Origin: a virus
Taxonomy: Duplodnaviria > Heunggongvirae > Uroviricota > Caudoviricetes
Virus record (IMG/VR): IMGVR_UViG_2718218360_000002
DNA length: 64,000 nt
Reading direction: 5' to 3' (one strand)
The position numbers were made by a program. This document shows, piece by piece, positions 30,001 to 33,000 of this stretch (the stretch's first letter is position 1; each line of letters opens with the position of its first letter).

Positions 30001-33000
30001 TTTACTTTCATTTTCTGTCGGCGGTGACGGAGACATACATCAGATGGAAAAAATCACAACAGGTGTGTCATACACCACGTCAGCGGTAGGGACGGGATAC
30101 TGGTTACTGCAACTGCTGGACAAAGTCTCTCCGTCCCAGTGGGTGGCAATAGGTGTACTGGGGAGTCTGCTGTTTGGCCTGCTGACGTATCTGACAAATC
30201 TTTATTTCAAGATTAAAGAAGATAAGCGTAAGGCTGCGAGAGGTGAATAATGTCGCCGTCATTACGCAAGGCTGTTGCAGCTGCTATTGGTGGTGGGGCT
30301 GTTGCCATAGCGTCTGTGCTCATCACTGGTCCAGGTGGTAACGATGGTCTGGAAGGTGTCAGCCACATACCATACAAAGATATCGTTGGCGTATGGACTG
30401 TATGTCACGGACACACCGGAAAAGACATCATGCCCGGTAAAACGTATACCGAAGCAGAATGCAAAGCCCTCCTGAATAAAGACCTTGCCACGGTCGCCAG
30501 ACAAATAAACCCGTACATCAACGTCGATATACCGGAAACAACGCGCGGCGCTCTTTACTCGTTCGTTTACAACGTGGGCGCTGGCAATTTCAGAACATCG
30601 ACGCTTCTTCGCAAAATAAACCAGGGCGATATCAAAGGCGCATGTGATCAGCTACGGCGCTGGACATACGCTGGCGGTAAGCAATGGAAAGGGCTGATGA
30701 CTCGCCGCGAGATTGAGCGTGAAGTCTGTTTGTGGGGGCAACAATGAGCAGGGTAACCGTTATTATCTCCGCTCTGGTTATCTGCATTATCGCCTGCCTG
30801 TCATGGGCTGTTAATCATTACCGCGATAACGCCATTACCTACAAAGCGCAACGCGATAAAAAAGCCAGTGAGCTGAAGCTGGCGAACGTGACAATTACTG
30901 ATATGCAGGTACGCCAGCGTGATGTCGCTGCACTTGATGCCAGATACTCGAGGGAATTAGCCGATGCGAGAGCTGAAAATGAAACTCTGCGTGCTGATGT
31001 TGCCGCTGGTCGTAAGCGCCTGCGCATCAACGCCAACTGTCCAGGCTCCTTGCGTAAAGCCCCCATCACCTCCGGCGTGGATAATGCAACCGGTCCCCGA
31101 CTGGCAGAAGCCGCTGAACGGGATTATTTCATCCTCAGAGAACGGCTGATGGCAATGCAGAAGCAACTGGAAGGAGCACAGGAATATATCCGTACCCAGT
31201 GTATACCGTGATGTTTTGTTATGAAGGTGTTACTGGTAACGTTAAGGTAATTTAACAAAGAGTCAGTTCCGGACTTTATAGTGTGCTCAGTTCATGGACA
31301 AAAACGATTTCTGTGATAAATATTTTGAATATTATTTACAGGTAAATGGAGTGGGGCGCATGGATAGAAATATTACAATAGAGTATGAAGTATATGCCCG
31401 TATTGTATGGGCAGAGAAGGCAAAAACACGGTAATTCCGTGTGTTGCCATGATACCTGATTGGCAGAATAGTTGTTTGGTTTTGAGTATATAGTCAGCGT
31501 TTTTTGTTCAGTAATTGCCCCCTCAAAAAATAATAAAATAAGGTGATTATTTTTGTTTATTATTTAGTTTTTTTGTGTGTTATTTTATTGTTTTTGCGTG
31601 GTTTGTTTTTTATTGTTATTTCATTAAGGGAAGGTAAATTCAGGATGGCAGTCTGTAGATAATCGGAGGTCACTTATGCTACATGATCACGTGGCAGAAT
31701 GTCTGGAGAAAAAAGGACTGTACCGGAGAGCAGCTGAACGATGGGCAAAAGTGATGGTACAGCTAAGTGATGACCAGAAAAGAAAAGTGGCGGCACAGAA
31801 ACGAGCAGAGTGTTTGCGTAAGGCGCGCCGGACTCCGGTTTCACCGGTGAACCTGACCGAAATAAAACAAGCGGTCAACAGACTACATTCTGAGTTGGGA
31901 ATGGGATTTGAAGAGCGGCGGGTATTCCGACGATATAAAGGGACAGGAGAACAGAATACGTCCGGAAACGCGCGGTCAAAAAAATGCTAAAAAATATCTG
32001 AGAGAGTTATTGCCTGTTACCATAAGAAAAAGCGACTTTAGTGGTCGCTTTTTGTGTCATATATAAGTCGTTTAAGTAAACCTGTCTGAACAGGTGCTCT
32101 GGTCGTGTTTGTCTTTGTTGGGTACAAATTGAGAATATTTTTCATTAATTAATCTTCTTCTGCAGGCTTCAATAACCCACGCTGAAAAATTACCTGAACC
32201 TTTCTGGTCAAGAGCGATGTTAATTTGTTCAATCATCTGGTTTGGAAATCGGATGTTGCGGGTTGTTGTTCTGCGGGTCCGGTTTTTCGGTGACATTTTC
32301 TTTCCTCTGGTGACAAGCTATATGGCGAGGATTTTACATGGCCGTGCTTCGTACGTTACCGGGCAGAATCAAAACTCTGAATACCCGGCGGGTGAATGTC
32401 CTGAAGGGGGAACAGCGTCGGGTCAGTGGCAGTGCCCGGGTTTCCCTCAAGCGTCGTATCTGGCTGAGGGATGCCGGACAGTGCTGTCTCTGTGGGCGTG
32501 TGGTTGACCTTTGTGACAGTGAACTCGATCACCGCATTGCACTTCAGTTCGGTGGTGGTAATGAGGAGACGAATCTCTGGACGCTCTGTACCGAATGCCA
32601 TCGCCAGAAGTCAGTCAGTGAAACGGCGAGTGGTATGCCGGACCCGACGCTGCCGGAGGTGTCCGGAGGTCATGGCAGGGCAGACGATATCATCGGACTG
32701 TGACCCGCCCCGGGGGGGGATCATCCGGCGAAAAAACGATCGCCCCGGACACCGCCCCCCGTCTCATGCAGAGAAAAAATTCCTGTTTCAGGCCAGTTAA
32801 CATGTTAACTGGCTGCCCGGGCATTTTTTCGGTTTTTATCTTTATTATTCAGTTTGTTGTGCGAAAAAAATGTTAACTGGCTTTTTCAGCAAATGTTAAC
32901 CAGGCAGCAGTTAACATTTGCGGCATGAGATGCCGGGAAAAATGGGCTGAACCATACCCGGCTGAGTGCGTTCTGGACCCGGGAGGAGGCTGTGCTGACA

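Follow-up and report, generated by a model that had tools for sequence, protein, structure and literature searches.

Pch proteins, homologues of PerC, stand at the top of the regulatory cascade for LEE, the locus of enterocyte effacement, in enterohaemorrhagic Escherichia coli (EHEC), and the control of each pch copy decides when the pathogen attaches. Here we describe a pch gene, together with the T-rich DNA in front of it, in the Caudoviricetes record IMGVR_UViG_2718218360_000002 of IMG/VR (a stretch of 64 000 nt, hereafter the window; all positions refer to it). Our reference genes were those of E. coli O157:H7 Sakai: pchA (ECs_1091, prophage Sp4), pchB (ECs_2182, Sp11) and pchC (ECs_2737, Sp14). 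Positions 16, 172 and 183 of the coding sequence (CDS) are the published sites distinguishing these group-1 genes (PMC5931665). For a protein identical to that of the window, activation of LEE1/ler and a requirement for full LEE expression are reported in two papers (PMC5931665, PMC4764244). A more distant relative, PerC of enteropathogenic E. coli (EPEC), belongs to the same Pfam family and activates LEE1/ler too (PMC4764244); unlike pch, it is plasmid-borne, being the third gene of the PerA-controlled perABC operon on the EAF plasmid pMAR7, and a T-rich leader of this kind is lacking there. The identity between EPEC PerC and the window Pch is ∼47% over residues 2–88.

Several factors are known to act on pchA. 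LrhA directly activates pchA and pchB, Lrp/butyrate acts at the pchA promoter, and LeuO also acts on pchA (PMC4456613, PMC7279287); sigma-S and NtrC affect pchA as well (PMC10714755, PMC3459932). The regulation of pchA and pchB differs, according to Honda 2009 as cited in PMC4456613.

The product of 31676–31990 gave a full-length match to PF06069 (PerC) of Pfam (149.3 bits, cut-off 22.6; E 3.8e-44), with residues 1–89 on profile positions 1–89 of 90, and was 100% identical to Sakai PchA. Its CDS differed at no position from pchA, at one from pchB and at three from pchC; the differences among group-1 genes were confined to the three diagnostic sites (window positions 31691, 31847 and 31858), and at all three the window had the pchA base. 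The first-pass annotation had called this gene a PerC homologue and named alignment to pchA, pchB and pchC of a reference EHEC as the check; the full-length family match and the alignment both bear the name out, and the latter specifies the allele. In RefSeq the identical protein is entered as a PerC family transcriptional regulator (WP_001303878.1); no NCBIfam model matched Pch, and PDB held neither a relative of Pch nor a solved structure. Over the 951 bp surrounding the open reading frame (ORF) the window showed 100% identity with FRIK2455 and some further O157:H7 chromosomes, whose annotation likewise gives the ORF as a PerC family regulator; the window corresponds to FRIK2455 from 1824285 onward. 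In the phage collection that we searched only two unannotated fragments matched the pch region, and a GTDB scan with the single Pch protein returned only two loci. The kind of element is already known and so, at the protein level, is the gene; it is an ordinary, well-studied copy of pchA. By analogy with the identical protein, its 104-aa product would activate the LEE1/ler promoter and so turn on the type III secretion island.

Taken together, the data make us confident that group-1 pch, here in its pchA allele, is a self-contained cassette that presumably has T-rich regulatory DNA of its own and a step at the level of translation mediated by the small RNA (sRNA) DicF, and that read-through transcription can reach in addition. 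The cassette is a small one, placed in a lambdoid O157:H7 prophage between the lysis gene Rz and ylcI on the packaging side, and its 464-bp upstream region accompanies the gene everywhere. A search of 5426 complete E. coli genomes located the 5′ part of this region (31212–31490) and the CDS at 1873 places each, which were identical and lay in 672 of the genomes; the upstream region therefore never occurred without pch at the sensitivity of the search. Proteins 99–100% identical to the window Pch were encoded in 80 loci of IMG/VR. The homologous block began near 30800, inside Rz, in 64 of the 80 loci and ended at ∼32275–32300, where ylcI starts, in 62 of them; outside 30800–32296, the lysozyme side and the packaging modules differed among loci. 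Given these bounds and the differing flanks, the recombining unit looks like Rz′-leader-pch-ylcI and not like pch alone. Identical Pch proteins were seen also on some records classed as plasmids (59–185 kb; 15 plasmid places), possibly phage-plasmids or misassigned replicons.

In several respects the cassette resembles a phage moron, an additional gene equipped with a promoter and a terminator that sits between conserved genes of lambdoid phages: pch is a compact unit between Rz and packaging-side genes, its GC content is below that of its neighbours, it confers a phenotype on the lysogen, and a hairpin that could serve as its own downstream terminator follows it at 32027–32053. For a promoter belonging to the cassette itself we rely on the literature (native PpchA, PMC7279287), and no related phage with Rz joined directly to ylcI was found that would define the insertion borders. 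The hairpin (AAAAAGCGAC-TTTAGTG-GTCGCTTTTT) is terminator-like in both directions and flanked by A and T runs; it folded with dG −14.7 on the plus strand (z −4.4) and −11.9 on the minus strand (z −4.1), and none of 200 shuffles was as good. The terminator scan missed it because the A and T runs lengthen the stem.

A pchA mRNA that is controlled by an anti-SD (anti-Shine-Dalgarno) element and activated by DicF was reportedly described by Melson and Kendall in 2019. According to reviews of that study, an element of this kind within the coding sequence of pchA sequesters the ribosome-binding site (RBS), and DicF pairs there and switches translation on (PMC7769764, PMC7873438, PMC9438474); this regulation is Hfq-dependent (PMC7308464). 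In our predicted minimum free energy (MFE) structure, the SD and start codon (31665–31676, GG..GUCACUUA) paired with codons 30–34 (31764–31775, UAAGUGAUGACC), with an SD pairing probability of 0.7–0.95. The helix was part of the MFE structure in 16 of 30 tested transcripts, namely those that start at or before 31640 and end at or after 31900. The fold of 31640–31900 had z −2.8, and none of 200 shuffles was as stable. The same helix was predicted for pchB, for the copy with a very divergent leader and for the homologue of E. albertii (91% amino acid identity), where a C-to-U change keeps a wobble pair; it was absent from folds of homologues at ≤79% identity.

DicF can form eight contiguous pairs at the edge of the helix, its 5′ end (UUUCUGGU) being a perfect complement of 31773–31780 (ACCAGAAA); this was the top-ranked DicF site in the pch cassette. 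Duplexes were computed with 25-nt target segments, full-length duplexfold output being discarded for its meaningless long-loop structures. After transcription, the predicted pairing of the RBS with codons 30–34 would block initiation, and DicF, by pairing at the helix edge, would open the helix as in the published mechanism. Our folding and the DicF match are consistent with that mechanism; they are not independent proof of it.

The DicF gene itself, adjoining dicB, lies in the same prophage as the pchA allele, ∼16 kb away. Sp4 of Sakai, the carrier of pchA, encodes DicF too; in the examined parts of Sp14 (pchC; dicB included) and Sp11 there was no DicF at the gathering score. A permissive Rfam search of 31100–32400 found no RNA family. 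We know of no description of DicF or anti-SD control for EPEC PerC.

Within the gap between Rz and pch, the segment 31500–31640 consists of 53.2% T and 24.1% A, with 22.7% GC; the window as a whole averages 24.4% T and 51% GC. Equally T- or A-rich 141-nt segments numbered 22 of ∼63 860, every one of them inside 31469–31640, and a GC content as low as 0.227 was reached by only 0.26% of segments. The first-pass annotation had spoken of an unusually T-rich leader of 460 bp: the gap is indeed 464 bp long and its T-richness is beyond chance, but the T-rich part covers only ∼170 bp, 31212–31470 being only moderately AT-rich (GC 0.31–0.43). Long T runs and short repeats had been singled out as well. 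We could find three 20-mers at 80% identity or, alternatively, a 2.5-copy tandem array with a period of 20–21 nt; however, the repeats and the T runs of at least 5 nt were matched by 29% and 30%, respectively, of dinucleotide shuffles of the tract. The repeats and runs thus follow from base composition, and we rejected the 20–21-nt T-rich repeats as a separate feature. Other very low-GC stretches of the window lie at 141–618, 7048–7216 and 56661–56814; of these, 284–618 has the strongest predicted curvature in the window (end-to-end ratio 0.72–0.75) and lies close to nleA and the effector island.

The tract 31469–31640 would act as the regulatory module close to the promoter. Binding by nucleoid proteins such as H-NS is plausible there, from AT content alone. 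A likeness to the H-NS-silenced promoters of acquired virulence regulators (LEE1/ler, virF) exists in the strongly AT-rich upstream DNA (GC 22–25%) and in the horizontal acquisition of the element. The pch tract departs from them in its moderate predicted curvature, and its strand asymmetry (53% T, 24% A) is not a known requirement of H-NS. We found no H-NS ChIP data for this locus; the supplements of PMC4764244 contained no per-gene H-NS table, nor did they list ECs1091, ECs2182 or ECs2737 with a ChIP entry.

The tract is also the part of the cassette in which the copies differ. Compared with the window, the 464 bp upstream of Sakai pchA had 7 differences (one of them in a T run discussed below), those of pchC 24 and those of pchB 44; 37 of the pchB differences and 13 of the pchC differences fell into the ∼141 positions of the T-rich tract, while the 5′ leader and the RBS of pchB and pchC were near-identical to the window. 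We counted variable columns among the window and the three Sakai genes and computed per-column diversity over 84 copies. Variable columns made up 31.5% of the tract (diversity 0.114), 5.6% of the 5′ leader (0.024), 8.6% of the RBS region (three columns; 0.025) and 1.0% of the coding sequence (0.0022); the diversity of the tract was therefore ∼50 times that of the CDS. The 84 copies had 33 distinct tract variants: types A, B and C, one very divergent type (locus L071) and mosaics. That divergence is concentrated in one tract of a multi-copy cassette which elsewhere hardly varies is the only mildly new point.

Length differences in T runs contribute to this variation. The window has T7 in the run at 31568–31574, whereas T8 stands in Sakai pchA and in most A-type copies and T6 in one locus; further T runs of the tract likewise differ by 1 nt. 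As many of the loci come from draft assemblies, part of the differences in homopolymer length may be due to sequencing errors; complete genomes, too, show the T7/T8 difference. Slippage-based tuning is one possible source of the variation, errors in the homopolymers of drafts another. T-richness, on the other hand, was kept in all 33 variants, and also upstream of the E. albertii homologue, where the DNA is not alignable beyond ∼70 bp (homology begins at ∼31606).

One could attribute the divergence of the tract to selection for different regulation, to recombination with diverged cassettes or to lack of constraint. Under the first of these the tract would have diverged between paralogues so that each copy is regulated differently. 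As a tentative possibility, then, the tract would be a fast-evolving regulatory module whose A, B and C types, mosaics and T6/T7/T8 states give each paralogue a different transcriptional input, a regulatory sub-functionalisation; if so, changes of T-run length could allow slippage-based tuning of promoter strength. Since the tract is where near-identical paralogues differ, it is the obvious place to seek differential regulation of pchA, pchB and pchC; it is also a candidate place for strain-to-strain differences in LEE expression.

Is pch under its own control or is it transcribed with the late operon? Scanning and folding found no intrinsic terminator on the plus strand of 31212–31675, between Rz and pch; late transcription during induction can therefore also enter pch. 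A hairpin at 31419–31448 (GGCAA..ACACGG-TAATT-CCGTGT..TTGCC; dG −16.7, z −4.8) has no U tract on the plus strand. On the minus strand TTTTTGCCTTCT comes directly after its inner stem, so that the hairpin resembles a terminator of leftward transcription. Group-1 pch rises under SOS-inducing treatment, ∼8-fold for pchC (PMC5931665, PMC6265319).

These results would fit a cassette in which pch is expressed mainly as a passenger of the late operon, by transcription that comes from upstream of the lysis genes and reads through under Q antitermination, and in which the tract has no regulatory role and is an unconstrained, slippage-prone AT-rich spacer; that no other part of the cassette varies as much as the tract, with indels in its T runs and repeats at chance level, would agree as well. 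We nevertheless hold this improbable. The published regulators LrhA and Lrp/butyrate act in uninduced lysogens, and a synthetic PpchA-pchA butyrate sensor functions outside the phage (PMC4456613, PMC7279287); reads resolved by single-nucleotide polymorphisms showed no SOS induction of pchA itself (log2 fold change −0.33; PMC5931665). Furthermore, drift would not obviously maintain T-richness in all variants and in the non-homologous DNA upstream of the E. albertii gene.

We conclude that the two routes coexist, given the published regulators of pchA, the lack of a terminator between Rz and pch and the SOS induction of group-1 pch. Late transcription at prophage induction would read into pch and add to its own promoter instead of replacing it. 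The first-pass annotation had proposed independent environmental control rather than read-through. Its first half agrees with the literature on pchA (LrhA, Lrp/butyrate, LeuO, sigma-S/NtrC, DicF), although not on the strength of this sequence: LrhA and Lrp/butyrate are reported at the pchA promoter, while LeuO and sigma-S/NtrC affect expression by routes not pinned to this DNA. Its second half was too strong.

Promoter predictions bear on a further alternative. The only two promoter-like sites on the plus strand, 31295–31324 and 31444–31472, lie upstream of the tract; with a promoter at ∼31295–31472 the tract would be transcribed, as a long U-rich 5′ untranslated region (UTR) that recruits Hfq/RNase E or modulates stability or translation. 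The Hfq dependence of DicF control (PMC7308464) would suit such a UTR, as would the predicted SD helix, counted as independent of the assumed 5′ end for starts at or before 31640. We find this version doubtful: the promoter hits occur at chance frequency and Rfam gave no match, the tract varies strongly, carries indels and shows nothing that points to a conserved structure, and a weaker candidate promoter read by eye at 31613–31640 (TTGTTA-16-TAAATT) would place the start of transcription 3′ of the tract.

Several observations weigh against the self-contained cassette with T-rich control DNA and an SD/DicF step. The promoter scan of the region gave 3 hits where 2.8 were expected, and the tract could be promoter-upstream DNA, 5′ UTR or neither; its hypervariability could equally come from lack of constraint. 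The H-NS high-affinity motif TCGATAAATT had no match with ≤2 mismatches in the tract. The curvature that the first-pass annotation had supposed is predicted to be only moderate: in a wedge model (Bolshoy-Trifonov parameters) 31500–31620 and 31260–31380 were in the top 3–4% of 120-bp segments, but neither belongs to the 12 places of strongest curvature in the window, and the end-to-end ratio of the tract is 0.89. With respect to the RNA step, transcripts starting at 31655 fold differently and the SD helix is lost in some short-transcript folds; the only comparative support for the helix comes from wobble-compatible changes in one close homologue; and the energy of the DicF duplex (−24.2) was equalled by 29% of random 780-nt blocks of the window.

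The gap contains two small ORFs, of 46 codons (31294–31434) and 39 codons (31543–31662), either of which might code for a small protein transferred along with pch. The window copy and Sakai pchA, pchB and pchC all keep the 46-codon frame open, and the stop codon of this frame falls into the loop of the stable hairpin 31419–31448; however, the four copies differ by nine non-synonymous changes and one synonymous change, and the frame has no Pfam or NCBIfam match and no obvious SD. The 39-codon ORF is disrupted by indels in the paralogues. On the substitution pattern and the indels we rejected both as genes; the 46-codon frame is probably not coding, and a co-transferred small protein is highly improbable.

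The placement of pch between the lysis cassette and the packaging genes, as first annotated, agrees with the gene order that we read over 29975–35213 (Table 1). The layout of Rz followed by pch is the same in Sp4, Sp11 and Sp14 of Sakai. For pchA of Sp4, the protein is identical and the arrangement Rz-[∼464 bp]-pch is kept; pchA lies there in an inverted segment flanked by insertion sequences, whereas the window phage has an intact order of lysis genes, pch, ylcI, HNH endonuclease and terminase. PchB (Sp11) and PchC (Sp14) occupy the same position after Rz and differ from the window mainly in the T-rich tract.

Table 1. Features of the pch locus and the DicF gene in the window
Feature	Position	Strand	Remarks
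DicF sRNA gene	15751–15803	−	Rfam RF00039, 76.7 bits (cut-off 48); adjoins dicB (15388–15576)
P21-type holin	29975/30044–30250		Upstream of pch
Lysozyme RrrD	30250–30747		Upstream of pch
Rz spanin gene	30744–31211	+	PF03245, E 2e-46; RefSeq CDS; left neighbour of pch
Rz1	30964–31149		Embedded in Rz
Rz-pch gap	31212–31675	+	464 bp, from the Rz stop (31211) to the pch ATG
5′ part of gap	31212–31499	+	Moderately AT-rich, conserved among copies; holds hairpin 31419–31448 and the 46-codon frame
T-rich tract	31469–31640	+	53% T; divergence hotspot among paralogues
Ribosome-binding region	31641–31675	+	Conserved; SD GGAGG at 31666–31670, six bases before the ATG
pch CDS, pchA allele	31676–31990	+	ATG start, 104 codons, 315 bp; PerC-family activator of LEE1/ler
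Predicted anti-SD	31764–31775	+	Overlapped by the DicF-matching 31773–31780
Terminator-like hairpin	32027–32053	both	Between pch and convergent ylcI
ylcI/ynfO-family gene (DUF3950)	32072–32296	−	PF13132, E 9.7e-20; NF041551; convergent with pch
HNH endonuclease	32338–32703		Followed by terS and terL (terminase small and large subunits)

The integrase gene of the prophage (11245–12375) follows a C-terminal fragment of ompW (11074–11199), to the right of an island with nleA, ISEc8, nleG and espM1. In Sakai the same ompW fragment is directly followed by yciE and the trp operon. As the Sakai ompW site is without this element, the window phage is an additional pch prophage, distinct from Sp4 and in tandem with an Sp9-like element; the four matching pch places in the O157:H7 genomes fit an extra pch-carrying prophage. 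What the window provides is mainly a clean annotation, that of a pchA-allele copy in an extra prophage in which DicF is encoded too.

On the identical sequence of FRIK2455, RefSeq has a DUF968 gene (23367–24416) with an internal stop and a frameshifted portal gene (locus L001, 12277–12951; window ∼37426 onward); the prophage is probably defective. Rfam matches elsewhere in the window included STnc100 (27334–27534, plus strand), which abuts the anti-sRNA AgvB (27537–27598, minus strand) upstream of a SASA esterase gene, and sok antitoxin RNA next to hokD (22233–22407).

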